DNA of 64,000 bases from Planctomycetota bacterium (GCA_035627695.1 DASPLE010000112.1:5626-69625), one strand, 5' to 3'; shown: positions 40,450-56,721, counted from the first letter of the stretch. Made by a program: numbers and translations. Notes: generated by a model from the letters alone, not told the origin.

Positions 40450-41787
40450 ATGGCCGAAGTCATCCGCCGCGTGCGGCCGACGCCGAGCGACGCGTACCTC
40501 GCCAATCCCCACAAGGGCGCCTGCACCTTCCAGCGCTTCGCCGGCGATCCGCTGTTCGCCGGCACGGCGTGGTCCGAGCAGGGACCGCTCACCTTCCCGG
40601 AGCGCGCCTTCCCCGGCACGACGCCCGCCTACCTGCCGAGCACCGTGGCCTACTGCCGTTGGTACTGGCAGATGCTGGAGCCGGCGCCGGGCAGCTACGA
40701 GTTCGGCATCCTCGACCAGGCGCTGGCGACCGCGGCGGCGCGCGGGCAGACGCTGGCCATCCGCCTGATGCCGTTCGGCCATCCGGCGGATCCGCAGCTG
40801 CCGCGCTGGTATGCCGACCGCCACGGCGCGGACGCCAAGGGCCATCCGGATCACGACTCCGCCCCGTACCTGGAGCACTTCGGCGGGCTGATCCGCGAAG
40901 CCGGGCGTCGCTTCGACGGCGATCCGCGGCTCGAGTCGATCGACCTGGCGTACATCGGCTACTGGGGCGAAGGCGCCGGGACGTGCAGCGCCGAGCAGTG
41001 CCGGCGCTTCGCCGAGCTGTTCCGCGAATCGTTCCCGACCACGCCGCGCCTGGGCATGATGGGCGACGCGCAGATGCGCGCGGCGCTGGCGACCGGCACC
41101 GGCTGGCGCTGCGACTGCTTCGGCGACCTGCGCGCGCCGGGCGACGCGTGCGTCATGCGCCACCATTCGTGGAACCACATGCTGGAGGGCTATCCGCGCG
41201 CGATGGCCGAATGCGGCGCGGTCGACACCTGGCGCACCGCGCCCGTGCACTTCGAGACCTGCTGGGTGCCGATGACCTGGCAGCAGCGCGGCTTCGATCT
41301 CGACTACATCATCGGCCAGGGCCTGAAGTGGCACGGCACCTACTTCATGCCCAAGTCGTGCGGTCTGTCGCCGGAATGGGTCGATCAGCTTTCCGACTTC
41401 TGCCGCCGCCTCGGCTACCGCTACGTCCTGCGCCACGCCGCGCTGCAGAGCCCGACGCCGATCGCCGGCGGCTGGTTCGGCTTCCAGGCGTTCATCGAGA
41501 ACGTCGGCGTCGCGCCGATCTACCACCGCTACGATCTCGCGATCCGCCTGCGCCAGCGCGACCGCGAGGAGATCGTCACCGTCCCCGACGTCGATATCCG
41601 CACGTGGCTGCCGGGCGACGCCTGGATCGACCGCCGCATCCCCCTGCCGCCCGGCCTGCGTCCCGGCTGGGCCGACCTCGCGCTGGGCATCATCCGCCCC
41701 GGCGAGCGCGACGCGCGCGTGCGCTTCGCGGTCGAGGAGACCTTCGGCAACGGCTGGGTGTCGCTCGGCGGGATCGAGCTGGACTGA
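40450..41787 (+). CDS. DUF4874/DUF4832-like glycoside-hydrolase-fold protein
   Basis: In-frame ATG at 40450 (track ORF 40162..41787). NPHKGACTFQRF, YCRWYWQMLEP..G.Y.F, and IGYWGEGAG resemble the DUF4874/4832 family, from memory only. Confidence 0.6.
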   Translation: MAEVIRRVRPTPSDAYLANPHKGACTFQRFAGDPLFAGTAWSEQGPLTFPERAFPGTTPAYLPSTVAYCRWYWQMLEPAPGSYEFGILDQALATAAARGQTLAIRLMPFGHPADPQLPRWYADRHGADAKGHPDHDSAPYLEHFGGLIREAGRRFDGDPRLESIDLAYIGYWGEGAGTCSAEQCRRFAELFRESFPTTPRLGMMGDAQMRAALATGTGWRCDCFGDLRAPGDACVMRHHSWNHMLEGYPRAMAECGAVDTWRTAPVHFETCWVPMTWQQRGFDLDYIIGQGLKWHGTYFMPKSCGLSPEWVDQLSDFCRRLGYRYVLRHAALQSPTPIAGGWFGFQAFIENVGVAPIYHRYDLAIRLRQRDREEIVTVPDVDIRTWLPGDAWIDRRIPLPPGLRPGWADLALGIIRPGERDARVRFAVEETFGNGWVSLGGIELD

Positions 41788-41791
41788 CGCC

Positions 41792-43480
41792 ATGAGCGCC
41801 CAACCCATGTCCCGCGTCGCGCGACGCCGCGGCGCGGCGGTGCTGCTCGAAGTGCTGCACAGCGAGGGCGTCCGCTACATCTTCGGCAATCCGGGCACCA
41901 CCGAGCTGCCGCTGATGGACGCGCTGCACGCCGCTCCCGACATCGCCTACGTCCTCGGCCTGCAGGAGGCCAGCGTGGTGGCGATGGCCGACGGCTACGC
42001 CCAGGCGGCGCGCCGGCCCGGTTTCGTCAACCTGCACACCGCGGGCGGCCTCGGCCACGGCATGGGCAACCTGCTCAACGCCAGCGTTTCGGGCACGCCG
42101 CTGGTGATCACGGCGGGCCAGCAGGATTCGCGCCACACCATCACCGATCCGCTCCTGCTGGGCGACCTGGTGCGCATCGCCGCGCCGGCGGTGAAGTGGG
42201 GCCAGGAGGTCACGCACGCCGACCAGCTGCCGGTGCTGCTGCGCCGCGCCTTCCACGACGCGATGGCCGCCCCGACCGGAGCGGTCTTCCTCTCCCTGCC
42301 GATGGACGTCATGGAGGAGATGAGCGCGGTCGCGATCGACCAGCCGTCCACCATCGATCGCCGGCCGATCGCCGGATCGCTCGACGAGCTCGCCGGCCAC
42401 CTCGCCGCGATCGCGCCGGGTCGACTGGCGCTGATCGCCGGCGATGAGATCGACGCCAGCGACGCCGCCGCGCAGGTCGTGGCGCTGGCGGATCTGCTCG
42501 GCGCGCCCGTCTACGGCTCGTCGTGGCCGTCGCGCATCCCGTTCCCGACCTCGCATCCGCTGTGGGCGGGGAACCTGCCGACCAAGGCGAGCGCGATCGC
42601 GCAGCGGCTCGCCGGCTACGACGCGATCTTCGCGCTCGGCGGCAAGTCGCTGATCACCATCCTCTACAGCGAGGGGCCGGCCGTGCCGGCAGGCTGCGCC
42701 GTCTTCCAGCTCTCGGCCGACGTCCGCGACCTCGGACGGACGTACGCCACGCGGCTGTCGGTGGTCGGCGACATCCGTCGCTCGCTCGACGCCCTGCTGC
42801 CGCTGCTGGCGAACGCCGCGTCACGCAACGCGGCCGCGTACGCTGCGCTGCGCGCCGGCGCGGTCGCCGACCTGGCTCGCCGGCGCGCGGCGTTGGCGGC
42901 GACCGCGGCCGAGCAGATCGGGGCACCGGTCATGACGCCGCTGGTCGCCGCGCAGCAGGCGATGCGCGCGATCGGCCCGGACGTGGCGATCGTCGACGAG
43001 GCGATCGCCACCTCGGTCCACCTGCGCGGCTTCCTCGACAGCGGCTGGCCGCGCCAGTACTCGTTCCTGCGCGGCGGCGGCCTGGGCTGGGGCATGCCGG
43101 CCGCGGTGGGCTTCTCGCTGGGCCTCGATCGCGCGCCGGTGGTCTGCCTGGTCGGCGACGGCGCCGCGCTGTATTCGCCGCAGGCGCTGTGGACCGCGGC
43201 GCGCGAGGCGCTGCCGGTGACCTTCGTGGTGATGAACAACCGCGAATACAACGTGCTCAAGAACTTCATGCGTTCCCAGCCGCACTACCTCTCGACGCAG
43301 CGCGATCGTTTCATCGCCATGGACCTCGATCGCCCGGCGATCGACTTCCTCGCCCTGGCGCAGGCGCTCGGCGTCCCGGCGCGCCGCGTCGAGCGCGCGC
43401 AGGACGTCGCCGCGGCGATCGAGGCCGGCATCGCCTCGCGGCTCCCGAACCTGATCGAGGTGGTCATCAGCGCCGAGTGA
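41792..43480 (+). CDS. Thiamine-pyrophosphate enzyme, benzoylformate-decarboxylase/acetolactate-synthase-like
   Basis: ORF-track 562 aa. VRYIFGNPGTTELPLMDAL and a TPP-binding GDGAALYSPQALWTAAR...VVMNNREYN motif. Confidence 0.9.
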   Translation: MSAQPMSRVARRRGAAVLLEVLHSEGVRYIFGNPGTTELPLMDALHAAPDIAYVLGLQEASVVAMADGYAQAARRPGFVNLHTAGGLGHGMGNLLNASVSGTPLVITAGQQDSRHTITDPLLLGDLVRIAAPAVKWGQEVTHADQLPVLLRRAFHDAMAAPTGAVFLSLPMDVMEEMSAVAIDQPSTIDRRPIAGSLDELAGHLAAIAPGRLALIAGDEIDASDAAAQVVALADLLGAPVYGSSWPSRIPFPTSHPLWAGNLPTKASAIAQRLAGYDAIFALGGKSLITILYSEGPAVPAGCAVFQLSADVRDLGRTYATRLSVVGDIRRSLDALLPLLANAASRNAAAYAALRAGAVADLARRRAALAATAAEQIGAPVMTPLVAAQQAMRAIGPDVAIVDEAIATSVHLRGFLDSGWPRQYSFLRGGGLGWGMPAAVGFSLGLDRAPVVCLVGDGAALYSPQALWTAAREALPVTFVVMNNREYNVLKNFMRSQPHYLSTQRDRFIAMDLDRPAIDFLALAQALGVPARRVERAQDVAAAIEAGIASRLPNLIEVVISAE

Positions 43481-43534
43481 GCGTCGAACTCCCGGCGTCG
43501 ATCACCGCTCTTCCGCGCGCGTCCTCCGCCACTC

Positions 43535-44650
43535 TCACCAGTGCGTCGGCGCACCGCTCAGGCGCTGCACCCAGTGGATCGTGCCGACCAGGTTCTTGTT
43601 CCAGGCCTGGGTGCGGCAGCGGTTCAGCGCCCACGTGCTGCTCGCGTTGGGCGGGGACATCATGTACGTGTCGCGCGCGTTCGGATCGGGCGAGCCGAAC
43701 CCATCCCAGTTGCCGTACGGGCTGCCGTTGGGCGTCTTCAGGCCGGCGCAGATGTTGTCGTATTCAGGCGTCAGCGTCGCGGCCGACCACTGCACGCGGT
43801 ACCAGAGCCGCACCTCGGCGCCGACGATCTGATCGAACGCCTGCCTGGTGCCGAACGCGCCCTGCTCGCCCGCGCCGACGACCTCGCCCCAGTCCTTGTA
43901 GCCCTGGCTGGCGCCCGCCCCGCAGGTGACGACGAAGGTCGCGTCCTGGTCGCGATAGACCCGGAACCAGGAGCGGCCCACCGATTCGATCCGCGCCTGC
44001 GTGTCGCCATGGATGTAGAGTGACCAGTTGCTGGCGCCGCCCGCCGACGGGATGGCGATGGCGTCCGAGACCGTCGGATAGCCGTTGGTCACCTGCGGCT
44101 GCGGATCGGGATTGCGCAGGTACGGGAAGCCGCGATCAGGCGCGCCGGCGGTCGTCGAGATCGGATTGTAGACCGCGGTGATCCGCGTCGCGAAGGGCGG
44201 GCGCTGCAGCACGTGCATCGGGCAGCGGGCGACCGATTTCACCGCCGGCCAGGCGCGGCGATCGGGGTCGCCGTCGCCGTCGCCGTCCTCGACGAGGCTG
44301 AGCGAGAAGAACGCCGGCCATCCGGGATCGTCGCCGCGCGGACCGGTGCTTCCGTCGCGGACGTCGAGCCAGCCGTAGGCCTCGCGGTGCTTGTCGCCCG
44401 GCGGCGCCGCCGCCGGGCTCGACGGCGCGGTGCCGTAGCCGAGGCGCGACGCCTCGAGGATGTAGTCGCAGGCGGCGAGCAGCATGATCCGCGCCTGGGC
44501 CTCGGCGACGATACCGTTGGTCTCCTCGACATCGCTGCGCATGCGCGCGAGGAACGAGAACGACAGCGCCGCGAGCAGGGCGACGATGCCCGAGACGATG
44601 ATCAGGACCGTGCCGCGGCGGCCCGGTCGTCGGCCAGCCGTGCTGTTCAT
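43535..44650 (-). CDS. GspK-like minor-pseudopilin-type protein (371 aa) with a novel C-terminal domain
   Basis: ATG at 44650 within track ORF 43535..45418. N-terminus RRGTVLIIVSGIVALLAALSFSFL resembles the GspK/PilX-type hydrophobic N-terminus without the FTLxE motif. 4-nt overlap with the upstream gene. Confidence 0.7.
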   Translation of the reverse strand: MNSTAGRRPGRRGTVLIIVSGIVALLAALSFSFLARMRSDVEETNGIVAEAQARIMLLAACDYILEASRLGYGTAPSSPAAAPPGDKHREAYGWLDVRDGSTGPRGDDPGWPAFFSLSLVEDGDGDGDPDRRAWPAVKSVARCPMHVLQRPPFATRITAVYNPISTTAGAPDRGFPYLRNPDPQPQVTNGYPTVSDAIAIPSAGGASNWSLYIHGDTQARIESVGRSWFRVYRDQDATFVVTCGAGASQGYKDWGEVVGAGEQGAFGTRQAFDQIVGAEVRLWYRVQWSAATLTPEYDNICAGLKTPNGSPYGNWDGFGSPDPNARDTYMMSPPNASSTWALNRCRTQAWNKNLVGTIHWVQRLSGAPTHW

Positions 44651-45828
44651 GGATCGTCCAGGGTCGGGGTGTTCACGTGGCCGGACGCGTTGTCCCAGCG
44701 CGCCCAGCCGCCGTCGCGGCCGCGCTGCTGCCGCGCGCCGCGCAGGCTGGTGCCCCAGCCGCTGAAGGTCAGCGCCATGGCGTTGCCGGTCACCGGGCTG
44801 ACGACCCGGACCTTGCACATGCTGATCGGACGCGCGTCCTTGATGAAGCGGCTGACCGACACCGTCGCGTTCGGCCAGTGCGCCGGTCGGCCGGCGCGCA
44901 GCAGCGATTCGGGGACATCGGTCGCCTTCTTGAAGTCGCCGACCTCGTTGGCGTTCCCCGATCCGGCGTCGAATCCGACCATGTAGGCGTACCGGTTCGC
45001 CTCGTTCAGCGGCTTGCCCGACCCGTCGGGGTTGGGGATGGCGTACACGCCCTTGGTCGTGCAGCGGTACTTGCCCGGCGGCACGCGCGCGCGGTTGAGG
45101 CGTTCCTCGTGGCGGAAGAAGCCGTTCGCGCCGCTCTGCGTCTTCACGTACCAGTTCAGCACCGCGCCGTTGCGGCCCATGGTGTCCGGACCGCCCGGAT
45201 CGAAGGTGGCGAAGATGCTGTTCGGCGGAGCGTACTCGCACAGGCCGTAGAATCCGAGCGCGTCGCGCAGGCGCTGGATCTGGAACGGATACCAGTGGTG
45301 CGCCGCCGCAGGCGCGCCGCTGTAGGCGACGCTCTGCGCCGGCGAGACCGGCGCATTGAAGCCGAAGCTGAAGGTGTTCGCCTCGGCGGTCGAGAAGATC
45401 GCGTAGCGGCCGAGCCACATCTTCGACGTGCTGCGCTCGGCGAGGTTGCCGCGGTACCAGGTCCGGCTGCTGCTGGGATCCCAGGCCTTCTCATCGGAGC
45501 GCCAGGATTGGTCGTCCTCCGTGTCGAACGCGCCGCCGCCGTTCGGCCACACCGTCGCGAAGGGCGTGAACGGCAGCCCATAGCGGCCGACGGCGGCGCG
45601 CAGCGGGGCGGTCGCGGCGTCCGGATCGTCGTACTCGCGCCAGAAATCGATCTCGTCGTGCGCGGCCGCGACGCCGACGCGCAGCATCGCGTTCTCGAGC
45701 GCGAGGCGGTTGGCGGCCGCGACCGTGAGGCTCGCGGCGCGGAACGCCGCGAACGCGGTGACGACGATGATCGCGCCGAGCGCGACGGAGATGATCAGCT
45801 CGATCAGGGTGAAGGCGCGGTGCTGCAT
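44647..45828 (-). CDS. Prepilin-type N-terminal cleavage/methylation-domain protein (393 aa)
   Basis: ATG at 45828 within track ORF 44647..47265. MQHRAFTLIELIISVALGAIIVVTAF carries the class III signal peptide motif FTLIE. The remainder is unrecognised and aromatic-rich. Confidence 0.8.
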   Translation of the reverse strand: MQHRAFTLIELIISVALGAIIVVTAFAAFRAASLTVAAANRLALENAMLRVGVAAAHDEIDFWREYDDPDAATAPLRAAVGRYGLPFTPFATVWPNGGGAFDTEDDQSWRSDEKAWDPSSSRTWYRGNLAERSTSKMWLGRYAIFSTAEANTFSFGFNAPVSPAQSVAYSGAPAAAHHWYPFQIQRLRDALGFYGLCEYAPPNSIFATFDPGGPDTMGRNGAVLNWYVKTQSGANGFFRHEERLNRARVPPGKYRCTTKGVYAIPNPDGSGKPLNEANRYAYMVGFDAGSGNANEVGDFKKATDVPESLLRAGRPAHWPNATVSVSRFIKDARPISMCKVRVVSPVTGNAMALTFSGWGTSLRGARQQRGRDGGWARWDNASGHVNTPTLDDP

Positions 45829-45830
45829 GA

Positions 45831-47900
45831 TCAGCGGATGGTCAGCGGGACGCGTGGATCGTAGTAGTTGAACCGCGCCACCTCGATCGCCCGCAGGCGC
45901 GCCGAGGTCGGCAGCGGACCGCGATCGAGACGCAGGTTGAAGTTGCGGTCCGCGCCGAAGCGGCCGGAGAACACCTCCGGGGCGACGCCGCCCAGGCCGC
46001 GATCGGCGGCGTTGTCGTTCATCACCATGATCGCGGAGACATCCTGACCGGTCGGGCCGCCGGCGACGCTCTGCTTGAACATCAGGACCTTTTCCGGGTT
46101 CCTGAATGAGAACAGGTGATCGTCCGCCCACTCGAGGCCGCACATCGGATTGGTCGCGCTGCCCAGCGCATCCTTGAACTGGTACGTCGCGCCACTGCCC
46201 GTCGGCGCGACCCAGTTGCTGTAGGTCAGCGCGTGCGGCGCGGCGAACGGGTACTTGCTCGCGTCGACCGTCGCGCCCGGCGCGGTCTCGAAGTCCTCGT
46301 ACGCATGCCAATCCGCCGCCCAGAAGACGATCTGGCGGCAACGGTCCATGGGCTTGAACGGAGCGGTCAGGGTGAAGTGCGAGCTGCGCCCCCATTCGCC
46401 GCCCGCGGTGCTCGGCCCGATCTCGTGCTCCGGGTACATCCAGCTGGCCCCGGCGTGCAGCACCGGCTGGGCGGGGATCGGCTTCCACTGCGCGGCGTCG
46501 ACGTTCGACCCGCTGATCGTGCCGGTTTCCGGCGGGGAGAAGAGGTCGTACTCGATCAGCGGATGATCCATCATGATCGCCCGCTGCGTCGGCCTGGGCA
46601 CGCGCCAGTCGTAGGGATTCTCGGCGCTGAACTGCATGATCATGCGCAGGCAGCGCTCGTGGTAGTAGCGGATCTTGCCGTCGGTCAGGCCGATCGGAGC
46701 GGGTGGACCCGCCTGGCCGCCGAGCGTCACCGGAGGGATCGGCACACCGGGGCCGGCATCGGACAGGCACGGATCGCCAGCGATGCCCGAGTCGCCCGGG
46801 CTGTGCGGATGGAACGAGGTCATGCAGGCGGTGGCGTGCGCGAGGAAGCGCATCGCCTGGACCTGCTTCCACGGCTCGGGGCTCGCGTCGAATCCGGTCG
46901 GGATGCTCGACGGGTCGGGCGGATCGTAGGTGCCGGGGTCGATGCCCTTGCGGACGCAATACCAGTACGCGGCCTGCACGTAACGCATGAGCGAGGCGCG
47001 CGACGGCACGCCCTGGTTGGGGAACATCCCCTTGTAGTAGGCGACCGCCGAGTCCGGCGGGCCGGTGTAGCGGCCGTACATGAACGGCAGGAAGCCGTAG
47101 TAGTCGGCTCCCTCCTGCCAGAAGAACACCTTGCGGATATCGGGATCGCCGCCCTGCGGATCGTGCGCGTGCTCCCACGCCTCCTCGATGCAGGCGCTCT
47201 GCAGCATCCACGAGATGTTCGATGATTCGTTCTGCGGCACCGGCCGGTCGTAGGCGTAGTCCCACGTGAACCGCGTCATGTTCAGCCCCGTCGGCAGGAA
47301 CTCGTCGTAGAGGAAGCTGTGCGTCGGCGGCGACGGGTACGGCACGTAGTACGGCCAGTTCTTCTTCGCCAGGATGTGCACCGCGTTGTTCTGCGGGTAT
47401 CCCAGGATCGCGAAGACCAGCCGCTGGCTCTCGTTGGGAGCCTCGGTGTCGGTCTGGTTCGCGTTCACCAGGTTGCGCTCCTCGGTGTTGGTCGTCGCCA
47501 TCGGCTGCGAGTAGTACAGGTAGGCGCCGTCGTCGAGCAGGCGCTGGATCTCGTCGCCGTTGGAGTCGAGGCGCCGCGCGATATCCGTCGGCAGCGGCAT
47601 GATGCCGAAGCGGTGCGACGACAGGCGCTGCTCGAGATCGAAGGCCTGCGAGCGGTAGCTGACCGGCACGTCCCAGGGTTTCAGCGCCTCGGTGTCGATC
47701 GCCGGGTTGGCGTTCGCCGTGGCGTTGAAGGCCTCGACCATCTCCTCGGCCTTGGTCGCGGCGATGACGCGGAAGCGCGCGAACTGCTGCGCCTTCAGCC
47801 CGGCGGGGAAGGACATCATCACCGTCACGACGGCGAAGGAGACCAGCCCGAGCGCGATCGCGATCTCGAACAGCGTGAAGGCGGAGCGGTTCATCGTCAT
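45831..47900 (-). CDS. Prepilin-type N-terminal cleavage/methylation-domain protein, unusually large (about 689 aa)
   Basis: Track ORF 45831..47936. MTMNRSAFTLFEIAIALGLVSFAVV. Alternative ATGs at 47936 and 47894. The stop lies 2 nt before the next gene start. Confidence 0.8.
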   Translation of the reverse strand: MTMNRSAFTLFEIAIALGLVSFAVVTVMMSFPAGLKAQQFARFRVIAATKAEEMVEAFNATANANPAIDTEALKPWDVPVSYRSQAFDLEQRLSSHRFGIMPLPTDIARRLDSNGDEIQRLLDDGAYLYYSQPMATTNTEERNLVNANQTDTEAPNESQRLVFAILGYPQNNAVHILAKKNWPYYVPYPSPPTHSFLYDEFLPTGLNMTRFTWDYAYDRPVPQNESSNISWMLQSACIEEAWEHAHDPQGGDPDIRKVFFWQEGADYYGFLPFMYGRYTGPPDSAVAYYKGMFPNQGVPSRASLMRYVQAAYWYCVRKGIDPGTYDPPDPSSIPTGFDASPEPWKQVQAMRFLAHATACMTSFHPHSPGDSGIAGDPCLSDAGPGVPIPPVTLGGQAGPPAPIGLTDGKIRYYHERCLRMIMQFSAENPYDWRVPRPTQRAIMMDHPLIEYDLFSPPETGTISGSNVDAAQWKPIPAQPVLHAGASWMYPEHEIGPSTAGGEWGRSSHFTLTAPFKPMDRCRQIVFWAADWHAYEDFETAPGATVDASKYPFAAPHALTYSNWVAPTGSGATYQFKDALGSATNPMCGLEWADDHLFSFRNPEKVLMFKQSVAGGPTGQDVSAIMVMNDNAADRGLGGVAPEVFSGRFGADRNFNLRLDRGPLPTSARLRAIEVARFNYYDPRVPLTIR

Positions 47901-48144
47901 GCCGGACGGCCGCGGCGCGGCGAACCGGACGCCCATACCGGAATCATGGTTGCCATTGCACGCCTCCGCATAGCGACGTCGCCGCCGCCGCGCGCGCCGG
48001 GGCGTGCGCTCGGCTCAGCCGTCGACCACTTCGCCACGAGAGGCGCGATCGCTACATGCAATCCGGCACGACCGTCCACGCCCGGAACCGCTCCCGGCCC
48101 CGGGGAAGCCTGTATCGAGCCACGACCGGCCGGAGAGCTGGGCC

Positions 48145-50496
48145 ATGAAGTCCCCCGTACGCCATTTCGCCTGCCATGTCCTGCTGATCGCCTGCGCCGC
48201 TGCCGCCGAGGACCCCGTCGCCGCCGGCGGTTTCGCGACCGGGCTGACGCTCGGCGATGGCGGCTGGAGCGCGCCGGCGACCATCGACGAGCGCGCGTGC
48301 CGCGAGCTCGTCGGCCAAGGCGTCGTCGCGCTGCCGGTGTGGTGGGGCGATGGCATGCGGCCGCCGGCCGGGCAGGCGTTCCGCATCGAGGTCGACTTCC
48401 GCGACACCGCCTCCAGCCCGATCCGCGTCGAGGTCTTCGCCGGGCTGCCCGGCCGCTACGAGCTGCACCGCATCGGCGGACTCGGCGACGGCGCCTGGCG
48501 CACCGCGCTCATCCCCCTGCCCGCCGACATGGTCATGCGCCTGCCGGGGCGGGATCACACCGAGCTGGTGTTCAGCGCGCCCGCCGGCGGACCCGTCGCC
48601 TTCGCCGATCTGCGCATCGTCGCCGGCGATCCGGTCGCGGACGAGGCGCGCTGGTGTGCCGAGACCCGCGCCTGGGTCGCGCGGGCGCAGGCCGTCCAGC
48701 GCGCAGCGCTGACCGCGTCGGAGACCGCGCAGGCGCCGGTGCTTCCCGGCGCGTCGACGCACGGCGCGATCGCCTTCGTGCGCCCGTGCTGGGACCCGAT
48801 CCGCCCGGTCTCGGCGCCGCAGGCGGGCGAGGTCGGCGCTCCGCTGCGCCTGACCCTGGCGCGCAACGAGATCGAATCCGGCCAATTCGGCGTCCACGCC
48901 CACGGCATGGCGCTCAGCGACGTCGCCATCGCCCTGATCGCCGCGCCGCGCCGCGACGACGGCCTGACGCTCGGCGCCGAGGTCGAGCTGCTGACAGCGG
49001 AATTCGCCGCCGTGCACGAGGACGGCCACGAAGGACGGCGCCTCGCGCCGCAGCGGCTGTGGCCGTCGCATCCAGTGGCGATCGCTCCCGGCCGCTCGCA
49101 CGCCTTCTGGCTGACCGTCGCCGGCGACCGCACGCGGCCCGAGCCCGGCGTGTACCATGCCGAGGTCGCGGTCACCGCCGGCGGCGAGGCCGTCGCCGCG
49201 CTGCGCGTGGAGATCGTCGTCGCGCCGCTGGACCTGATCGGCATGGACGAGGCGGGTCTGGCGATGGGCGGCTGCGTCGCCGGCGCCGTCCCCCGGCACG
49301 AGATGGCGGCGATGCGCCGCCAGAACCACAACAGCATCAACTTCTGGTACAGCGGCTTCGCGCCCGCCATCCAGCGGATCTCGGCGACCGAGTTCACCCT
49401 CGACTTCCGCATCCTCGACGAGGTCATGCGCGACGCGCGCGAGAGCGGCATCACCAGCGTGGTGTGGTTCCTGGGCGGCGATCCGTACGGCTTCCCGGAC
49501 ACCCTCCATCTGGAACGCGAGCTGTACCGCTGCGTCGTCACCGGCGACGGCGGCATGGAGGGCCGCAAGGAGTACCTGCGCCGGGCGATGGCCGCGCCGG
49601 ATGCGCTGCTGCCCGAGCTGCGCGATCTCTATCGCGACTGGGTCGCCCAGGTGACGGCGCACGCGCGCGCCGCGGATTGGCCGGAGCTCATCCTGACCCC
49701 CTATGACGAGCCGGCGAAATGGACCCAGGACCGCAACCACGCCAAGCTGCTCTACTACCGCGACGCCACCGGCTACGAGCACATCGCCAAGCCGCGTCGC
49801 GAGGACATCGCCAAGACCATCGATCGCCTGACCCGCGAGGGCATCCCCTTCGAGGAGCTCGGCACCGGCGGGGCCGGACGGTGGCACAAGCCGCACTTCG
49901 AGGAGTCGTGCGCGCTGATCCGCGCCGGCGATCCCGACGTGCGCATCTACGGCTCGATCCACCACGGCACCGACGGCCTGCCGTTCCTCGACGACATCGA
50001 CGTCTTCTGCACCAACATGATCCAGGAGAACGAGGCGCTGGGCGACATCGTCCGCGCCGCCCAGCCGGTCGCGCCGTCGACCCGGGCGAAGGCGTTCTGG
50101 CAATACGCCGGCATGCAGGATGCGCTGAACGCGCGCTGGGAGTTCGGCTTCCGCTTCGCGCGCTACGATTCGCGCGGCTCGCTGTGCTGGGCGTATAACT
50201 TCGCCAACGACCGCTTCGATACCAGCGGCGGCGGCGCGTGGATCTACGCGTGGACCACGCCGTACGCGGTGGTCCGTTCGCCGTCGTACGAGGCGCTGCG
50301 CGAGGCGTGGGACGACCGCCGCTACATCGAGACGGTGCGCGCGCGGGCGCGCAGCGCCGGCCCGGCGGAGGTCGCCGAGGCCGAGGCGTTCCTGGCGACG
50401 CTGTTCGCCGAGGCCGCGGCCGCCCAGACCGATCGCGGCGCGGCGATCGAACACTGCCGCGCGCGCCTGCGCGATCGCCTGCTGGCCGGGCCGTGA
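48145..50496 (+). CDS. Secreted hypothetical protein, glycoside-hydrolase-like (DUF4091-like?)
   Basis: ATG at 48145 with GGAGAG upstream (track ORF 48004..50496). Signal MKSPVRHFACHVLLIACAAAA. LARNEIESGQFGV resembles the DUF4091-family motif. The family call is tentative. Confidence 0.7.
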   Translation: MKSPVRHFACHVLLIACAAAAEDPVAAGGFATGLTLGDGGWSAPATIDERACRELVGQGVVALPVWWGDGMRPPAGQAFRIEVDFRDTASSPIRVEVFAGLPGRYELHRIGGLGDGAWRTALIPLPADMVMRLPGRDHTELVFSAPAGGPVAFADLRIVAGDPVADEARWCAETRAWVARAQAVQRAALTASETAQAPVLPGASTHGAIAFVRPCWDPIRPVSAPQAGEVGAPLRLTLARNEIESGQFGVHAHGMALSDVAIALIAAPRRDDGLTLGAEVELLTAEFAAVHEDGHEGRRLAPQRLWPSHPVAIAPGRSHAFWLTVAGDRTRPEPGVYHAEVAVTAGGEAVAALRVEIVVAPLDLIGMDEAGLAMGGCVAGAVPRHEMAAMRRQNHNSINFWYSGFAPAIQRISATEFTLDFRILDEVMRDARESGITSVVWFLGGDPYGFPDTLHLERELYRCVVTGDGGMEGRKEYLRRAMAAPDALLPELRDLYRDWVAQVTAHARAADWPELILTPYDEPAKWTQDRNHAKLLYYRDATGYEHIAKPRREDIAKTIDRLTREGIPFEELGTGGAGRWHKPHFEESCALIRAGDPDVRIYGSIHHGTDGLPFLDDIDVFCTNMIQENEALGDIVRAAQPVAPSTRAKAFWQYAGMQDALNARWEFGFRFARYDSRGSLCWAYNFANDRFDTSGGGAWIYAWTTPYAVVRSPSYEALREAWDDRRYIETVRARARSAGPAEVAEAEAFLATLFAEAAAAQTDRGAAIEHCRARLRDRLLAGP

Positions 50497-50501
50497 GCCG
50501 C

Positions 50502-51887
50502 ATGCCGACGCTCCGCCTGATCGCCGCGGCGGCGCTCGCCCTCGCCGCCGGCGATCTCGCCGCGGCCGTGCATCGCATCGGGCCAGGCGATGATCTGGGC
50601 AGGATCCGCACGCTCCACGCCGGCGACGTGGTCGAGATCGCCTCGGGCACCTACAACCAGGCCGCGCGCTGGTCGTGCGCCGGCACGCCCGATGCGCCGG
50701 TCGTCATCCGCGGCGTCGGTCCGACGCGCCCGCTGATCGACGCCACCGGCGTCCTCGTCGACGGCGCGATCCGCCGGCCGCGCGCGTGCCTGCAGATCGA
50801 CGGCGTCGACGTGGTCGTCGAGCGCCTCGAGTTCGCCAACGCGCGCAACAGCCAGAACGGCTGCGGCTTCCGCTCGTCGGCGCCGCGCGACGCCCTCGCG
50901 GCGACGGTCGTGCTGCGCGATTGCGTCATCCACGACTGCGACATGGGCATCCAATCGGACGGCGGCCAGCACCTGGTGGTCGAGGGCTGCGACATCTTCC
51001 GCTGCGGCACGCCCGACTTCGCCGGCGCCAGCCACAACATCTACGCCGGCAACCGCCGGCTGACGGTGCGCGGCAGCTGGATCCACGACTCGACCGTCGG
51101 CTACAACATCAAGACCCGCTGCCACTACGTCGAGCTGCTCTACAACCTGATCAGCGGCTCGGCCGAGGGCGAGGTCGACCTGGTCGATTCCGACTGGACC
51201 AGGCTGCCGGACGCGAACGCGCTGATGCTCGGCAACGTCGTCGTCAGCACGCAGCGCCTGCCGACCGCGAACAAGCAGCGCTTCGTCGTCTTCGGCGACG
51301 AGGGCGAGGCCCATCCGGGCTCGCTCTTCGTCTACCACAACACCTTCATCGCCGGGACGCCCGACATCGATTTCCTCTCCTGCCGCCACCCCGAGAGCGG
51401 CATCATCGCCGCGAACAACGTGTTCTGGGGCAGCGGCACGGTCGGCACGTCGTGCGACGGACCGTTCGCCGGCGCCGCCAATTGGATCGAGGGCGGCGGC
51501 AGGCTGCCGCCGGGATTCGCCGTCGGCGGCGTCGATCCACGCTTCGTCGCGCCGGCGACCGGCGACTTCCGCCTGGCCGCGTCGTCGCCGTGCCGCGATC
51601 TCGGCCGCGCGCCGCTTCCGTACCGGGACGGCGATGGCAACGAGTGCATCGCGGTCGCCGAGTGGATGTACGTCGCCGTCGGCGATCTCGCGCCGCGCGG
51701 CGTCGACGCGCGCTGCGACCTCGGCGCCTACGAGGTCGGCGGGAAGGTCGGCGGCGCGAACCGCCGCGCGCGCCGCGCGGCGGCCAAGCCGAAGGCCAAG
51801 GCCAAGGCCGATCCCGAGGCCGATGCGCAGGTGCCGGCGGGGGACGCCCCTGCCCCCGCCGTGGATCCGCCCCCGGCGCCGCGCTGA
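50502..51887 (+). CDS. Secreted right-handed parallel beta-helix (pectate-lyase-fold) protein
   Basis: ATG at 50502 (track ORF 50238..51887). Signal MPTLRLIAAAALALAAG. Repeats VLRDCVIHDCDMGIQS and VVEGCDIFRCG. DFRLAASSPCRDLG. Lys/Ala/Pro-rich tail. Confidence 0.8.
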   Translation: MPTLRLIAAAALALAAGDLAAAVHRIGPGDDLGRIRTLHAGDVVEIASGTYNQAARWSCAGTPDAPVVIRGVGPTRPLIDATGVLVDGAIRRPRACLQIDGVDVVVERLEFANARNSQNGCGFRSSAPRDALAATVVLRDCVIHDCDMGIQSDGGQHLVVEGCDIFRCGTPDFAGASHNIYAGNRRLTVRGSWIHDSTVGYNIKTRCHYVELLYNLISGSAEGEVDLVDSDWTRLPDANALMLGNVVVSTQRLPTANKQRFVVFGDEGEAHPGSLFVYHNTFIAGTPDIDFLSCRHPESGIIAANNVFWGSGTVGTSCDGPFAGAANWIEGGGRLPPGFAVGGVDPRFVAPATGDFRLAASSPCRDLGRAPLPYRDGDGNECIAVAEWMYVAVGDLAPRGVDARCDLGAYEVGGKVGGANRRARRAAAKPKAKAKADPEADAQVPAGDAPAPAVDPPPAPR

Positions 51888-51989
51888 TCGACAACGGATC
51901 CGACGATGCGCCGTATGCGCCCCGCCTGGTAACAGGGCCGGTCCTGGTGGAGAATCAGGTGTCCGCCATCTTCGTCCTGGGATCCCATC

Positions 51990-54167
51990 ATGCGCCTCGC
52001 GCTCGCCGTCGCCTGCACCCTGACCTGCCACCTCGCGACCGCCGCGGACAGGCCGGTCGTGCTCCAGACCGCGGTCGAGCCGATCGCCACCGTGCCGGCG
52101 CCGCCCGCGTGGGACCGCTTCACCATCCTCGTCTGGCAGATCAACACCGACGTGGTGAGCGATCGGGCGCTCTACGAGTCGGTGAACCTGCGCGGATTCC
52201 ACGTCGACCGCCGCAACGACAAGCTCCAGGAGTTCGCCCGCGAGACCGGCTGGCCCTTCTACGTCGACCACGCGGCCGACAAGGGCTACCTGCACGTCCG
52301 TCCGAATGTGATCGCCCCGCTGATGCGCAAGAAGGACATCATCGTCCGCCCCAACAGCCTCGCCGATCCGGCGACCATCGCGACGATGAAGGACCACCTG
52401 CGCGCGAACGTCGCCTCGGCGAAGGGTTCGTCGGTCGTCGCCTACGCCTTCGACGACGAGGTCTCCACCGGCAGCTTCTGCTCGCCGATCGAAGCCGACG
52501 GCCATCCGCTGTCCGTCGCCGGCTATCGCCGCGAACTGGAGCGCACCTACGGCACCATCGCCGCCCTGAACGCGCAGTACGGCACCGACCACCACGACTT
52601 CGCCGCGATCGAGCCGCAGAGCTTCGAGGCCTTCCGCCGCCAGCTGACCAAGGACGGCATCGCGACGCTCAATCTCAGCGCGTGGTGCGACTGGCGCGCC
52701 GCGATGGACACCCAGTTCGCCGACTGCCTCATCGACCTGACCAACTTCACCAACGGGCTCGACCCCGCGGTGCCGGCCGGCTTCGTCGGCGGGCAGAGCC
52801 CGAACGCCTTCGGCGGGTACGACTACCGCAAGCTGACCAAGGCCGTGCAGTGGATGGAGGCGTACGACATCGGCGCCTCGAACGAGGTGCTGCGCAGCTT
52901 CTGGGATCAGCGGAGCAGCCGCATGCAGACCTTCTTCTCGAGCGAGAACCCGAAGCTCGACTCGTGGTACCTGTGGTACTACCTGTGCCACGGCAACCGC
53001 GGCGTGATCGCGTGGCCGAACGTGGACGCCAAGAACCAGCCGTGGTTCGCCAACGGCGCGGTCGCCGACTTCATCGCCGCCAACGCCGAGACCTTCAAGG
53101 AGGTCCAGGGCCCGGTGTCGCAGAAGATCCTCGGCGGCGAGTTCGTCCACGACCCCGTCGCGCTCTACTATTCGCACCCCAGCATCCAGCTCAGCTGGGC
53201 GCTGGACGCGGCGCCGCACGGCGGCACCTGGCCGAACCGGCTGTCGTCGATGGACAACCACCTGTCGACCAGCGGCCTGTCGCGCATCGGCTGGCTCAAG
53301 ACGCTCGAGGATCTCGGCGTGCAGGGCAAGTTCATCCACCAGGACCACCTGCTCGAGGGCGCGCTGATCCGCGACGGCTACAAGGTGCTGGTGCTCAACC
53401 GCACGCTGTGCCTGTCGGACGCCGAGGCGACGGCGATCAAGGCGTTCGCGGCCAAGGGCGGCACGGTCATCGCCGACCACCTCTGCGGCATCTGCGACGA
53501 GCACGGCAAGGCGCGCGCGGTCGGCGCGCTCGACGACCTGTTCGGCGTCAGCCGGGATCTCGGCCGCGGCTGGCTGGACGGCGACGACATGACCGAGGTC
53601 GACGGCGAGCGTGACGACCGCCTCTCCGAGAAGAGCTGGGCGGTCGGCGCCGCCCGCAGCTCGGGCATGGCGGTGTTCGAGAAGGGCCTGAAGGCCGCGG
53701 ACGGGGCGACGGCGAGCGCGGCGGACGGCACCGCGGTGGTCGTGCACAAGGCTAGGGCCGTGTACCTGAACCTCTCGCCGATCGGCTACCTGCTGCAGCG
53801 CTCGAGCGACACCGCGGCGCCGTGGCTCGACTTGGTGGGCGGCCTGCTCAAGGCTGCCACGGTCGAACCGCGCATCCACGTCGCGGTCGGCGGCAAGGCG
53901 GCCAAGCGCATCGAGACGCTGTTCTGGAAGCACGGCGACCGCACCACGCTCTGCGTCGTCGGCAACATCGATCGCGCGGCGACCATCGACAGCTTCGGCA
54001 CCACCGGCGGCGCGCTCGGCGACGCCGAGGTCGAGCTGACGCTGCGCTTCGCCCGGCCGGTCAAGAAACTGGTCAACGAGCGCACCGGCGCCGCGCTCGG
54101 CGACGGCGCCGAGTTCAAGGACCGCTTCACGCCGTGGCAGGCGAACGTCTACACGTTCAGCGAGTAG
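51990..54167 (+). CDS. Secreted GH42-like beta-galactosidase-family protein
   Basis: ORF-track 725 aa. Signal MRLALAVACTLTCHLATA. Central region with Y..EL.R.YG.I..LN..YGT and a class-I-glutamine-amidotransferase-like trimerisation-type segment VLVLNRTLCLSDAEATAIKAFAAKGGTVIADH. Family call is moderate. Confidence 0.7.
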   Translation: MRLALAVACTLTCHLATAADRPVVLQTAVEPIATVPAPPAWDRFTILVWQINTDVVSDRALYESVNLRGFHVDRRNDKLQEFARETGWPFYVDHAADKGYLHVRPNVIAPLMRKKDIIVRPNSLADPATIATMKDHLRANVASAKGSSVVAYAFDDEVSTGSFCSPIEADGHPLSVAGYRRELERTYGTIAALNAQYGTDHHDFAAIEPQSFEAFRRQLTKDGIATLNLSAWCDWRAAMDTQFADCLIDLTNFTNGLDPAVPAGFVGGQSPNAFGGYDYRKLTKAVQWMEAYDIGASNEVLRSFWDQRSSRMQTFFSSENPKLDSWYLWYYLCHGNRGVIAWPNVDAKNQPWFANGAVADFIAANAETFKEVQGPVSQKILGGEFVHDPVALYYSHPSIQLSWALDAAPHGGTWPNRLSSMDNHLSTSGLSRIGWLKTLEDLGVQGKFIHQDHLLEGALIRDGYKVLVLNRTLCLSDAEATAIKAFAAKGGTVIADHLCGICDEHGKARAVGALDDLFGVSRDLGRGWLDGDDMTEVDGERDDRLSEKSWAVGAARSSGMAVFEKGLKAADGATASAADGTAVVVHKARAVYLNLSPIGYLLQRSSDTAAPWLDLVGGLLKAATVEPRIHVAVGGKAAKRIETLFWKHGDRTTLCVVGNIDRAATIDSFGTTGGALGDAEVELTLRFARPVKKLVNERTGAALGDGAEFKDRFTPWQANVYTFSE

Positions 54168-54171
54168 CAGG

Positions 54172-54247
54172 GCGCGAAGCCGGAGCCGCGAAGCGCGAAG
54201 CGCGAAGCTCGAAGCTCGAAGCTCGAAGCTCGAAGCGCGAAGCGCGA
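54172..54247 (+). repeat. Heptamer microsatellite, about 11 units of GCGCGAA/GCTCGAA
   Basis: gcgcgaa gccggag ccgcgaa (gcgcgaa)x2 (gctcgaa)x4 gcgcgaa gcgcga, beginning 5 nt after the stop codon at 54165-54167. Confidence 0.9.
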
Positions 54248-54303
54248 CGAGTCCATCATCCGACGCAATCCGCTCGCTGACCGCGAGCGACCAGGAGCAC
54301 CGC

Positions 54304-56499
54304 ATGTCCACCGCCGCCGCCGGTTCGCGTCTCGCAGCGCCGCAGCCCATGGACGACCGCGACTTCATCGCCTGGTTCGACCTCTCGCGCCCGGGCATGG
54401 ATGAGGCGCGCCGCCTGAGCGACGCGGGGTCGCACCACGCGGCGGCATTGGCGGCCGCGGCGGCGGCGAGCGGAGGCGTGGCGCCGGGCGTCATCCCCGG
54501 CGGCGAGATCGCGGCGATCCGCTCGGCGATCGCGCGCCATGCGCCAGGCAGCGTCGAGCACGAACGCCGCGTCGCCGAGCTGTGGCTCGCGCCGCGCCTG
54601 CCGGCGGAAGGCGAGCTGCCGTACGTCGACGATCGGCGCCTCGGCCATTACGCCCGCGTCGGGCGCGTGCGCGGCAACGAGACGCTGACGCTGGCGCTGC
54701 TCTTCGCGACGACCGGCGAGCGGCGCTACGCCGACGCGGCGATCGCGGCGGGCCTCGCCGCGGCGGCGCGGCTCGATCCGACCGGCGGTTCACCGACCAA
54801 CTCCTGGCATCCGGGCGCGCCGGCGGGCGGCGATCACGACGTCGAGCTGCAGCTGCAGTACTGGATGGCGGCGTGGCCGCTCATCGACACGGCGATGACG
54901 CCCGAGCAGCGCCTGTCGTGGATGAAGGCGATCCTGCCGGCAGCGCGGAGCCGCCTGATCGCCAACCGCGACGAGATCGCCTTCAACCTGTCGCTGCATC
55001 CCACGCTCTCGGCGCTGCTCGTCGCCGTCGCCTTCCCGGCGCTGCGCGACGCCGCGGGGTGGATCGACGAGATCGCCGCGCGCCTGACCACGACCTACGC
55101 CGGCGCGCCGTTCGCGACCGCCGACGGCTACACCCGCGAAGGCACCGCCTATCACGACGTCAACACGCGGCTCCTGGCCTGGGCGCACCTGGCGCTCGCT
55201 CGCGGGATCGGCCGACGCCTGCCCGCGCTCGCCACGGCCTGCGCCGGCGCCTTCGCCATGCAGGCGCTGTTCGTCTGCCCCGACGGTTCGGGCTGGATGG
55301 TCGGCGACGGCAACCGCCTCTCCCTGCACGAGCCGTGGGTCGATGCCCACGAGTCGCTGCACCTCGGCGCGGCGCTGTTCGACCGGCCGGAGTGGAAGGC
55401 CCTGGCGGGATCGGTCGCCACGACCGATCCGACGCTGCTCGACCTGTGGCTGATGGGCGCTGACGGCATCGCGCGCTGGGCGGCCTGGCCGCGCGTCGAC
55501 GTGGCGCGTCGCGACGTCGCCGACGCGCACGCGCCCGCGTCGTGCTTCCACGCGCTGCGCGCTGGTCGCGGCCTCGACGCGCACGCCGGGCTGCTGTGCT
55601 TCGGTTCGGAGATGAACCACGCGCACCACGACAAGGGCCAGGTGCTGCTCTACGGGCTGGGCCGGCACCTGCTCTCCGACCACGGCCATCCCGGCTACGG
55701 CCCGAGCGACATGGTCCCCGGCTACAGCGCGCGCATCCACGGCGTCGCGGCGGTCATCCGGCGCACGCCGATGGGGCCGCGCACCGATCACGCCGACTAC
55801 ACCGCCAGCCTGGCGCAGCTGAAGACCGAGCACATCTCGGTGGCGCTCGGTGAACATCGCTACTACGAGAACCACGTCGTGCAGCGCGCGCTCGCGCTGG
55901 TCTCGCCGTGGGGCGCGGCGGATCCCGGGCGAGACGCCTTCTGGCTGATCTGGGACAGCGTCACCTGGAAGCGCGGCTGGCCGGGCACCGCGCCCGAGTC
56001 GCACGAGCTGATCGACACCATCTTCCCGTTCCATGCCCCGGGCTGCGCCGCCGTCGTCTGCGACGGCGGGCGCAGCATCGTCAGCCGTTACGATGGACCG
56101 GACGGCGCGCCGTTCACCCCGGGCGGGCCGACGCGCGCGCAGCTGCGCGCAGCGCACGAGCTGTCCGATTCCGACGCCAACCTCCAAGTCACGCGCCTCG
56201 ACACGCCGGGCAGCGCGGCGACCTGGGACGCGGTCGTGCAGAGCGGATCGACCAACACCACCGGCGGACCGTTCGTCGAACGGCCGATGGGACTGTTCCG
56301 CTGGCGCGGGCGGCTGGCGCACCACGCCGCCTACGTGCTGGTGCCGTTCCGGGGCGTGCGCGGCGACGTCTTCGCACCGGTCGCCGGTGAAGCGGACGAC
56401 GACGGACTGATCGCGCGCGTCACCTTGCCCAGCGGCGTCGTGACGGTCTCGGTCGGCGGCATGCGCAACCATGCGCTGGTCGCCGCGGTCTCGCGCTGA
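54304..56499 (+). CDS. Heparinase II/III-family polysaccharide-lyase-like protein
   Basis: ORF-track 731 aa. FGSEMNHAHHDKGQVLLYGLGRHLLSDHGHPGYG matches the Hepar_II_III core pattern. The N-terminal half is an alpha/alpha toroid-like region. Confidence 0.7.
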   Translation: MSTAAAGSRLAAPQPMDDRDFIAWFDLSRPGMDEARRLSDAGSHHAAALAAAAAASGGVAPGVIPGGEIAAIRSAIARHAPGSVEHERRVAELWLAPRLPAEGELPYVDDRRLGHYARVGRVRGNETLTLALLFATTGERRYADAAIAAGLAAAARLDPTGGSPTNSWHPGAPAGGDHDVELQLQYWMAAWPLIDTAMTPEQRLSWMKAILPAARSRLIANRDEIAFNLSLHPTLSALLVAVAFPALRDAAGWIDEIAARLTTTYAGAPFATADGYTREGTAYHDVNTRLLAWAHLALARGIGRRLPALATACAGAFAMQALFVCPDGSGWMVGDGNRLSLHEPWVDAHESLHLGAALFDRPEWKALAGSVATTDPTLLDLWLMGADGIARWAAWPRVDVARRDVADAHAPASCFHALRAGRGLDAHAGLLCFGSEMNHAHHDKGQVLLYGLGRHLLSDHGHPGYGPSDMVPGYSARIHGVAAVIRRTPMGPRTDHADYTASLAQLKTEHISVALGEHRYYENHVVQRALALVSPWGAADPGRDAFWLIWDSVTWKRGWPGTAPESHELIDTIFPFHAPGCAAVVCDGGRSIVSRYDGPDGAPFTPGGPTRAQLRAAHELSDSDANLQVTRLDTPGSAATWDAVVQSGSTNTTGGPFVERPMGLFRWRGRLAHHAAYVLVPFRGVRGDVFAPVAGEADDDGLIARVTLPSGVVTVSVGGMRNHALVAAVSR

Positions 56500-56721
56500 C
56501 GCTCGCGGAAACGCCAACCGGACAGCGGTTTTCCCGATCCCACGAAGTGACACGCGAGGCCGCGCGCGGCGCCGGGCAGGCCGTCGCGACGCGCGGCCGC
56601 GGACTGTCTCAATCGCCGCGGACGGTGACGGAATGCGGCGCGAGGTTGTCGCGTAACGCGCATCCGCGCGTGGAGAGAGCCGCTGACCAGCTCCACCACC
56701 GCGCCGCGCAAGGACCTCCCC

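Follow-up and report, generated by a model that had tools for sequence, protein, structure and literature searches.

What do three pilin-like proteins do in a stretch of planctomycete DNA that carries no machinery for assembling pilins? The question is raised by 64,000 nucleotides (nt) from Planctomycetota bacterium (GCA_035627695.1, DASPLE010000112.1:5626-69625; hereafter the window), in which three tightly coupled genes, g1, g2 and g3 (the trio), encode proteins with pilin-type N-termini. A first-pass annotation, made by a model from the sequence, had likened them to a minor-pseudopilin tip set and proposed a fibre-tip or adhesin module serving a neighbouring run of polysaccharide-enzyme-like genes. 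The window trio is a single copy of a cassette that is specific to the lineage, greatly expanded in number and regulated separately, and that keeps the logic of the GspI/J/K or PilV/W/X tip trimer with new globular domains. As to function, it is moderately probable that the cassettes provide a type IV filament machine, whose genes lie elsewhere, with interchangeable tip or initiation trimers under separate regulation.

Results

Organization of the trio

On re-checking, the three minus-strand genes, the 2-nt gap between g1 and g2, the 4-nt overlap between g2 and g3 and the N-termini of the first-pass annotation were all exact (Table 1). A codon-usage gene caller, trained on related loci and on the window, called all three as strong genes, and since each protein had more than 80 full-length homologues (E down to 1e-180), the trio is not a product of chance. 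The g1 frame is open as far as ATG 47936, which would give 701 amino acids (aa); a promoter-like motif at 47905-47930 favours ATG 47900, or possibly ATG 47894, as the start.

Table 1. Coordinates of the trio and of other features of the window (positions counted from the first nucleotide of the window; an arrow marks the cleavage site).
Feature	Coordinates	Strand	Description	Basis
g1	45831-47900	-	689 aa; GspI/PilV position; large globular domain, fold unmatched	Open reading frame (ORF) and N-terminus MTMNRSA↓FTLFEIAIALG
g2	44647-45828	-	393 aa; pilin-like, GspJ/PilW position	N-terminus MQHRA↓FTLIELIISVALG
g3	43535-44650	-	371 aa; GspK/PilX position, without Glu5	N-terminus ...RRGTVLIIVSGIVALLAAL
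Promoter-like motif	47905-47930	-	Extracytoplasmic function (ECF) type, GTCCGG-N16-CGTC; -10 element ends 4 nt before ATG 47900	GTCCGGttcgccgcgccgcggcCGTC
Divergent intergenic region	47901-48144		244 nt, from g1 to a secreted 783-aa protein (48145-50496, no recognised family)	
Beta-helix/PA14/PKD protein	5596-7884	-	762 aa	Pfam
ECF sigma (Sigma70_r2 + r4_2) fused to right-handed beta-helix	7932-10073	-	713 aa	Pfam
GH38	21202-23409			Pfam
PIG-L	24327-26198			Pfam
DUF4832	40450-41787			Pfam

The GC content of the window was 72%. That of g1 was lower than the gene mean (0.678 vs 0.724, SD 0.021), in agreement with the lower GC noted by eye, but GC at third codon positions (GC3) was native, at 0.925-0.942 against a window reference of 0.942 (SD 0.014), and the dip lay in first codon positions. 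The dip is thus explained by amino-acid composition, and foreign origin was ruled out as its cause. Tyr, Asn, Pro and Phe were enriched in the trio proteins (g1 vs other window proteins: Tyr 4.6% vs 2.2%, Asn 3.9% vs 1.9%, Pro 9.7% vs 5.9%); the first-pass annotation had described the C-terminal regions of the first two proteins as rich in Tyr, Trp, Asn and Pro.

Pilin-type N-termini and the distribution of Glu5

The N-termini of g1 and g2 carry the [G/A]FTLxE prepilin motif and form class III signals with Glu5. Positions F+1, T+2, L+3 and E+5 were invariant or nearly so in the g1 (n = 103) and g2 (n = 79) families, and Glu5 was kept in all g1-family sequences covering the position (100/100; 3 of 103 gapped) and in 79/79 of the g2 family. 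Conversely, all 119 g3-family sequences lacked Glu5 and shared the cleavage-site pattern R-x-G↓T-[IV]-L-I-x-V-A-G (RRG↓TVLIIVSG in the window). In type IV filaments, Glu5 pairs with the N-terminus of the adjacent subunit and is missing from the GspK-type subunit at the apex; the trio, with Glu5 in its first two subunits only, thus reproduces the GspI-J-K pattern. Features of GspK in g3 include the hydrophobic N-terminus, the Gly cleavage site, the absence of Glu5 and the invariable third place in the cassette. Ala at position -1 of g1 and g2, which had been listed as unusual, is present in the window but normal for both families, since both residues are common there (56 Gly and 41 Ala in the g1 family; 47 Ala and 32 Gly in the g2 family). 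Ser also occurred at -1 in neighbouring pilin-like genes of related loci (e.g. RRS↓FTLTE in L069).

In the hidden Markov model (HMM) comparisons suggested with the first-pass annotation, g2 passed Pfam N_methyl (PF07963; 24.3 bits, cut-off 21.2) and TIGR02532 (21.1 bits, cut-off 16.3), and g3 matched only the N-terminal part of NCBIfam T2SS_GspK (NF037980), residues 12-64 aligning to positions 2-54 (22.6 bits, cut-off 130). The N_methyl score of g1 was under threshold (10.2 bits), with the exact FTLFE motif present, and its weak matches were to GspI (TIGR01707; 14.4 bits, cut-off 44.35) and to Verru_Chthon cassette protein B. Among relatives, TIGR02532 was matched by 59/79 and PRK10557 by 35/79 of the g2 family, and the T2SS_GspK N-terminus by 30/119 and ComGG by 6/119 of the g3 family. 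Neither a full-length GspK match above cut-off nor a GspK fold was found for g3 in NCBIfam, PDB sequences or PDB folds; g1 and g2 scored under the GspI and GspJ cut-offs and are oversized for those families. The trio is not placed in the GspI, GspJ or GspK families, which it failed to match by score and by fold. Pfam returned no match to any trio protein except N_methyl, and none to DUF1559 at E up to 1. The PilY1/PilC tip adhesins are likewise not represented, as no Pfam beta-propeller was matched and the N-terminus of g1 is of the prepilin and not of the Sec type.

Conservation and expansion of the cassette

Homologues of the trio proteins that carried a source name were all labelled Planctomycetes or Planctomycetota, were nearly all annotated as hypothetical proteins, and had no Pfam domain other than N_methyl. 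More than 150 full-length homologues were obtained for g1 (37-48% identity, 600-900 aa), 382 matches at E ≤ 0.001 for g3, and 89 matches for g2. Searched against 1.84 billion representative proteins, the g1 profile returned 278 clusters (50% identity) at E ≤ 1e-30 and 364 at E ≤ 1e-10. With one genome per GTDB species, 116 g1 relatives were confined to 18 metagenome-assembled genomes (MAGs), of which Co_metawrap_1754 (GCA_038213805.1, JBBQSO01) and MGR_bin416 (JACDGQ01) each had at least 11 loci and three others had 7 each. By locus tags, about 10 cassettes occurred in the VEL07 MAG, which shares its sample (ERZ27257312) with the window contig.

Family HMMs of the three proteins, run against our own gene calls, identified 63 complete trios in the order g1-g2-g3 among 67 genome loci. 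The median gap was about 10 nt between g1 and g2 and -4 nt between g2 and g3. Among 79 independently retrieved metagenome loci, the order was direct in 46 and consistent in 8 more; the remaining loci were mostly contig ends or artefacts of stop-to-stop ORF coordinates. Overall, the order was kept in about 110 cassettes. The distance matrices of g1, g2 and g3 in 52 full cassettes were correlated (r = 0.84-0.90; 0/499 permutations as high), which indicates that cassettes duplicate and diverge as units. Tandem double trios were present in three loci (L019, L032, L087), and a fourth (L063) had a second, partial cassette on the opposite strand. Such side-by-side trios are probably recent duplications, and a route by which the repertoire grows. 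Literature searches on planctomycete pseudopilins and on prepilins with ECF sigma factors or FecR returned no description of the trio system.

Promoter-like motif and neighbouring regulators

A k-mer screen upstream of g1 genes yielded TGTCCGG, which extended to the bipartite motif [C/G]T-GTCCGG-[A/T]...CGTC-T. Exact GTCCGG-N15-18-CGTC occurred 67 times in 2.42 Mb of strand sequence; 27 of the 67 matches lay in the 360 nt upstream of g1, which make up 1.1% of the searched sequence (58-fold enrichment). Ten further matches were cassette-linked, standing before sigma genes (as in the sigma-FecR-trio operons of L028 and L029), before first pilins (as in the larger operons of L053, L056 and L084) or before g1 genes missed by the caller. 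Only spacers of 16 nt (24 cases) or 17 nt (13 cases) were found, although 15-18 nt were permitted. The enrichment was replicated (50-fold; 13/42 positive) with 45 non-redundant metagenome loci that lay outside motif discovery. A CGTC -10 element with such spacing is a hallmark of ECF sigma promoters. By its sequence features (two parts, CGTC as -10 element, a 16-17 nt spacer, and a place upstream of targets as well as of sigma genes) the motif appears to be such a promoter, and its occurrence before adjacent sigma genes is consistent with autoregulation.

For the window taken by itself, the motif occurred at chance frequency (4 matches vs 4.35 expected); the credibility of the copy before g1 comes from its position and from the family-wide 50-58-fold enrichment, not from window frequency. 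A second intergenic GTCCGG-N16-CGTC, at 56498-56523 on the minus strand, lies between two plus-strand genes, faces no minus-strand gene and is probably a chance match. In 43300-48300, no sigma-70-type promoter match was found, and the terminator scan gave nothing useful.

For the neighbour analysis, 466 neighbouring genes were clustered and the cluster representatives annotated. FecR anti-sigma factors, mostly with a C-terminal PA14 domain, were present at 16 loci (position -1 in 7) and ECF sigma factors at 14 (position -2 in 6); about one fifth of cassettes adjoined an ECF sigma factor together with a FecR anti-sigma factor bearing PA14 or Laminin-G. Other regulators were of LacI type (10 loci), AraC (4 loci) and GntR with a periplasmic-binding domain (4 loci). 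A dedicated regulator stood within five genes of the trio at 37/67 loci and within two genes at 27/67. The stop codon of a FecR-PA14 gene overlaps the g1 start in L090, and the anti-sigma factor of L089 has Laminin_G_3 in place of PA14. In a Pfam census of 110 immediate neighbours (149 families, the 25 most frequent of which were listed), PA14 (9), FecR (8), N_methyl (6), Peripla_BP_3 (5), AraC (4), Pkinase (3), Peptidase_S26 (3) and GntR (3) were recorded.

Several other associations were observed around cassettes. Signal peptidase I (Peptidase_S26) stands directly beside three of them and DUF4337 beside three. A TonB-dependent receptor (Plug plus beta-barrel; L086:7534-9705) lies directly upstream of a trio and co-directional with it, an arrangement that recalls FecA-FecR-FecI trans-envelope signalling. 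In the window, a 1065-aa Ser/Thr kinase (59136-62333, plus strand) is encoded 11 kb from the trio, and kinases 28-36% identical to it were found within 10 kb of at least six cassettes (L002:2302-5676, L069:10158-12926, L080, L066, L052 and L051). The kinase may be another recurring regulator, or the genomes may simply be rich in kinases.

Larger pilin operons and assembly machinery

Among divergent members, the trio is contained in operons of up to seven pilin-like genes, which follow the type II secretion system (T2SS) order G-H-I-J-K. The order in L084 is a GspG-like gene (185 aa), a GspH-like gene (194 aa), g1, g2, g3 and two more pilins, and similar operons were found in L069, L007, L053, L066 and L002. 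These operons, the family-wide Glu5 pattern and the invariant gene order all support the first-pass likening of order and N-termini to a minor-pseudopilin tip set.

The absence of nearby machinery was also borne out. With E. coli GspC/D/E/F/L/M/O as queries, tblastn found no homologue in the 64 kb window, no further pilin-motif gene was found there, and Pfam scans of most of the larger neighbouring genes found no T2SS or type IV pilus machinery. The sole machinery-like exception among related loci was a 352-aa GspE/PilB-type ATPase on the trio contig L109 (Pfam T2SSE, 234 bits), whose best NCBIfam matches were GspE and PilB, GspE being the highest. Its operon (4639-9091, minus strand) is convergent with the trio (164-4501) and partly duplicated in L108. 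The ATPase gene is followed, with 4-nt overlaps, by genes for 707-aa and 253-aa proteins without family match, which may form a divergent filament platform, judging by eye from GspF/PilC-like 'G.sLp.Al' repeats in their N-termini. At least one filament ATPase is thus present in an organism that carries the trio; linkage to the trio is not implied.

Size and structure of the globular domains

The first-pass annotation had put the first two proteins at 2-4 times the usual pseudopilin size. Relative to E. coli GspI, GspJ and GspK (125, 195 and 327 aa), g2 agrees with this at about twice GspJ, g1 is larger still at about 5.5 times GspI, and g3 is of normal size for GspK. AlphaFold2 models from deep alignments had pLDDT 83 and pTM 0.83 for g1 and pLDDT 83 and pTM 0.76 for g3, with predicted N-terminal helices of 50-55 residues (9-60 in g1 and 12-67 in g3; pLDDT 88-98). 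The g3 model ends in a conserved, confidently predicted C-terminal strand (357-363), which fits the terminal strand reported to be supplied in cis by GspK-type subunits (PMC13533445). The g1 globular domain, of about 630 residues, has a conserved core with 34 invariant columns and variable loops at 141-160, 201-240, 281-300, 321-340, 361-400, 481-500, 561-580 and 621-640, several of which coincide with low-confidence segments of the model. Sequence-profile searches of the PDB with all three family alignments detected nothing beyond the pilin helix of g2. Outside the N-terminal helix, g1, g2 and g3 are three families without Pfam, NCBIfam or PDB relatives; the earlier statement that the C-terminal domains match no family stood in Pfam, NCBIfam, PDB profiles, hhalign and Foldseek alike.

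The adjacent locus and carbohydrate-related genes

The genes at 48145-59091 had been described as a divergent run of secreted, polysaccharide-enzyme-like genes. The divergence from the trio and the secretion signals hold (signal peptides in 4/5 genes), but a glycan-enzyme signature was found in only 2/5 (Beta_helix and GH42M), and 3/5 are without recognisable family. PDB sequence searches on 4/5 of these genes gave one weak GH42M match only. Except for one weak match of 25% identity, none of the five had a homologue (E < 1e-10) beside other cassettes.

Genes for carbohydrate enzymes are dense in the window (roughly 7 of 47 genes), and the beta-helix, GH38, PIG-L and DUF4832 entries of Table 1 show such genes all along it, so that their adjacency to the trio is expected by chance. 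Among 11 related loci with full Pfam context, carbohydrate enzymes lay within 10 kb in about 7; the others stood beside PriA, RND efflux pumps or a TonB-dependent receptor. Carbohydrate enzymes were not prominent among the 110 immediate neighbours, with few such families in the listed top 25. Given the high window background and a census of the top 25 families, an enrichment of carbohydrate enzymes near cassettes was not demonstrable. The carbohydrate link survives only indirectly, through the sensor domains (PA14, Laminin-G) and the regulators of sugar type.

Other genes in the window

The 713-aa ECF sigma-beta-helix protein (Table 1) is an unusual sigma fusion beside a probable glycan-binding protein. 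By their N-terminal sequences alone, the products of 10965-11888 (plus strand; MARPIWSGAISFGIVNIPVKLF) and 13216-14127 (plus strand; FEFKWDGFRA) are Ku-like and ATP-dependent ligase-like, respectively; they look like a non-homologous end-joining pair and flank a gene for a BrkB-family membrane protein (11924-13135). A 376-aa AAA_21/AAA_15 ATPase of the abortive-infection/OLD-type defence kind is encoded at 30388-31518 (minus strand), adjoined by a small gene at 30083-30391. The 739-aa product of 1374-3593 (plus strand) has matches to Ser/Thr kinase and Response_reg (receiver) domains.

Discussion

Proposed interchangeable tip trimers

If the cassettes encode interchangeable tips, the three pilin-like subunits, anchored in the inner membrane, would join 1:1:1 in a complex that initiates or tips a type IV pilus or a T2SS pseudopilus and that corresponds to the GspI-GspJ-GspK or PilV-PilW-PilX core trimer. 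With their cleavage motif and Glu5, g1 and g2 would each pair with the subunit above, and g3, without Glu5, would be the top-most subunit and cap the trimer. For processing and assembly, the subunits would rely on a prepilin peptidase, an ATPase, a platform protein and a secretin whose genes lie elsewhere. The 10 or more diverged copies per genome would constitute a set of alternative tips, many of them transcribed from the ECF-type GTCCGG-N16/17-CGTC promoter, and different tips would be made on different cues, probably carbohydrates. We infer complex formation, incorporation into a filament, the machine used, the pairing of sigma factors with promoters, and the ligand or role.

The trio resembles GspI-J-K and PilV/W/X in its three consecutive, coupled genes with Glu5 in the first two and not in the third, in the long N-terminal helix, in the GspK-type third N-terminus and in the conserved C-terminal strand; as with GspI-J-K, divergent trios are preceded by GspG- and GspH-like genes. 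Unlike GspI-J-K, it has globular domains without detectable sequence or fold homology, g1 and g2 are oversized, and the cassette is detached from the machine operon, present in at least 10 copies per genome and linked to ECF sigma factors and FecR. Verru_Chthon cassette proteins A-D (TIGR02596-TIGR02600) make up functionally uncharacterised, pseudopilin-like cassettes that occur in multiple copies in Verrucomicrobium and Chthoniobacter. They share with the trio the Planctomycetes-Verrucomicrobia-Chlamydiae (PVC) superphylum, the repetition of cassettes with prepilin motifs and the lack of an assigned function, but they are not the same families: the matches were confined to the N-terminal helix and far under cut-offs (g1 vs protein B, 14.4 bits, cut-off 51.4; g2 vs protein D, 11.9 bits, cut-off 70). 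No paper on the Verru_Chthon cassettes was found in the literature.

Across type IV filaments, a core trimer of PilI/J/K is reported to license assembly, with a terminal beta-strand either supplied or taken up by PilK (PMC13533445). In Myxococcus xanthus, one machine serves three minor-pilin/PilY1 clusters (PMC7541494), which, like the trio, are several paralogous tip or priming sets per genome, presumed to serve one machine under different conditions and with some large minor pilins. Each of the 3 sets in M. xanthus combines 4 minor pilins with a Sec-exported PilY1 beta-propeller adhesin, whereas the trio occurs as at least 10 sets of 3, lacks PilY1 and has its bulky domain as part of the first pilin. 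Bulky modules are displayed at tips by modular pilins (e.g. PilB of Streptococcus sanguinis, CofB; PMC8179133), which share with the trio an N-terminal pilin module and a bulky extra domain expected at the tip. Their modules are recognisable (vWA, lectin), whereas the domains of g1-g3 match no signature or solved fold, and in the trio all three subunits are enlarged or novel. Similar to the trio, DUF1559 paralogues are a lineage-specific expansion with prepilin-type N-termini and unassigned role (PMC10632474); they are single genes, whereas the trio is a fixed three-gene cassette with the I-J-K motif pattern and no DUF1559 match.

Several results weigh against alternative tips on one machine. 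Homology to GspI/J/K was detectable in the N-terminal helix only, with HMM scores far under family cut-offs; hhalign against the E. coli proteins aligned only 17-40 columns of that helix (g2 vs GspJ, residues 2-34, probability 82%; g3 vs GspK, probability 6% over 40 columns). Foldseek comparison of the g1 and g3 models with PDB structures gave no support for a pilin-type alpha-beta roll behind the helix, since neither pilins nor GspK were matched (best E: g1, 2.9; g3, 4.9), and the g1 model had no match in BFVD, the best E across the PDB and BFVD searches being 0.85 or worse. Neither the window nor the flanks of some 120 distinct cassettes, about 2.2 Mb in all, yielded a prepilin peptidase, secretin or platform protein, and the L109 ATPase may stand beside its trio by chance. 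The window motif is a weaker match, with c and not t flanking both elements, and by its position would imply a leaderless or very short-leader mRNA, with transcription predicted to begin near 47896-47900. Planctopirus limnophila has 68 DUF1559 paralogues with a prepilin signal (PMC10632474), and many planctomycete prepilin-signal proteins of unassigned role may not be filament subunits.

Alternative explanations

The same results bear on an explanation in which the trio proteins are membrane-anchored periplasmic proteins and not filament subunits, the prepilin N-terminus serving only for insertion, processing or anchoring, and the trio forming a binding, sensing or uptake module as the output of an ECF sigma system. 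The lack of assembly machinery beside some 120 cassettes and of pilin-like fold matches for the globular domains would be expected of such proteins; the trio stands, in sigma-FecR-trio operons, where a regulated transducer or transporter is often found, one cassette directly follows a TonB-dependent receptor, and the phylum has large prepilin-signal paralogue families without assigned role (PMC10632474). Two subunits with Glu5 and one without are, however, hard to explain without filament-type helix packing, as are the GspK-type third N-terminus and the G-H-I-J-K-like order of divergent operons, and this explanation is considered unlikely, at a low but appreciable probability. Rather less probable is that the trios are cargo-selecting tips of T2SS pseudopili, each regulon bringing its own secretion adaptor and not an adhesin. 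The best N-terminal matches were to T2SS models (GspK for g3; GspG and GspH for the extra small pilins), the L109 ATPase scored best as GspE, secreted enzymes are frequent beside some loci, and the 48-59 kb genes mostly have signal peptides. Yet secreted enzymes are missing beside many cassettes, T2SS and type IV pilus subunits cannot be told apart by the N-terminal helix alone, and at least 10 alternative T2SS tips would be without precedent.

The original proposal joined the trio with 48145-59091 in a fibre-tip module that captures polysaccharide or displays enzymes. Trio and locus have the 244-nt divergent intergenic region in common, the Beta_helix and GH42M signatures and the signal peptides of the locus would suit such a role, and planctomycete pili-like fibres bind dextran (PMC5394234). 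The functional tie did not hold up: the locus is not conserved beside other cassettes apart from the single 25% match, most of its genes are without recognisable family, carbohydrate-enzyme genes are common window-wide, and immediate neighbours of cassettes are mostly regulatory domains and pilins. The joint module is accordingly judged very improbable. An artefact, pseudogenes or a recently imported island, to which the lower GC of g1 might point, has a practically negligible probability, and was refuted by native GC3 and by intact frames conserved in hundreds of homologues.

A more specific form of the preferred explanation, in which one machine with at least 10 sensor-switched tip trimers of new fold makes fibres whose substrate-matched tips capture polysaccharides, is tentative and on balance doubtful. 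Each trimer would have its own envelope sensor, either an ECF sigma factor with a FecR anti-sigma factor (PA14 or Laminin-G), or a LacI, AraC or GntR regulator.

Implications

The tip of a type IV filament determines what the pilus can bind and even its ability to assemble. Known systems have one to three tip sets; with at least 10 diverged, separately regulated sets in one genome, a single machine would be diversified in a new way. Two of the three proteins have confident models and are candidates for new folds. The ECF-type promoter together with the sigma/FecR-PA14 linkage offers a testable circuit in a phylum with almost no mapped regulation. If the glycan link holds, the trio genes would be candidates for whole-polysaccharide uptake by Planctomycetota. 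Substrate-matched tips, if real, would be a pilus-based counterpart of the SusC/D loci of Bacteroidota, and would give a molecular identity to the glycan-binding fibres on planctomycete crateriform structures, whose pili-like fibres bind dextran (PMC5394234).

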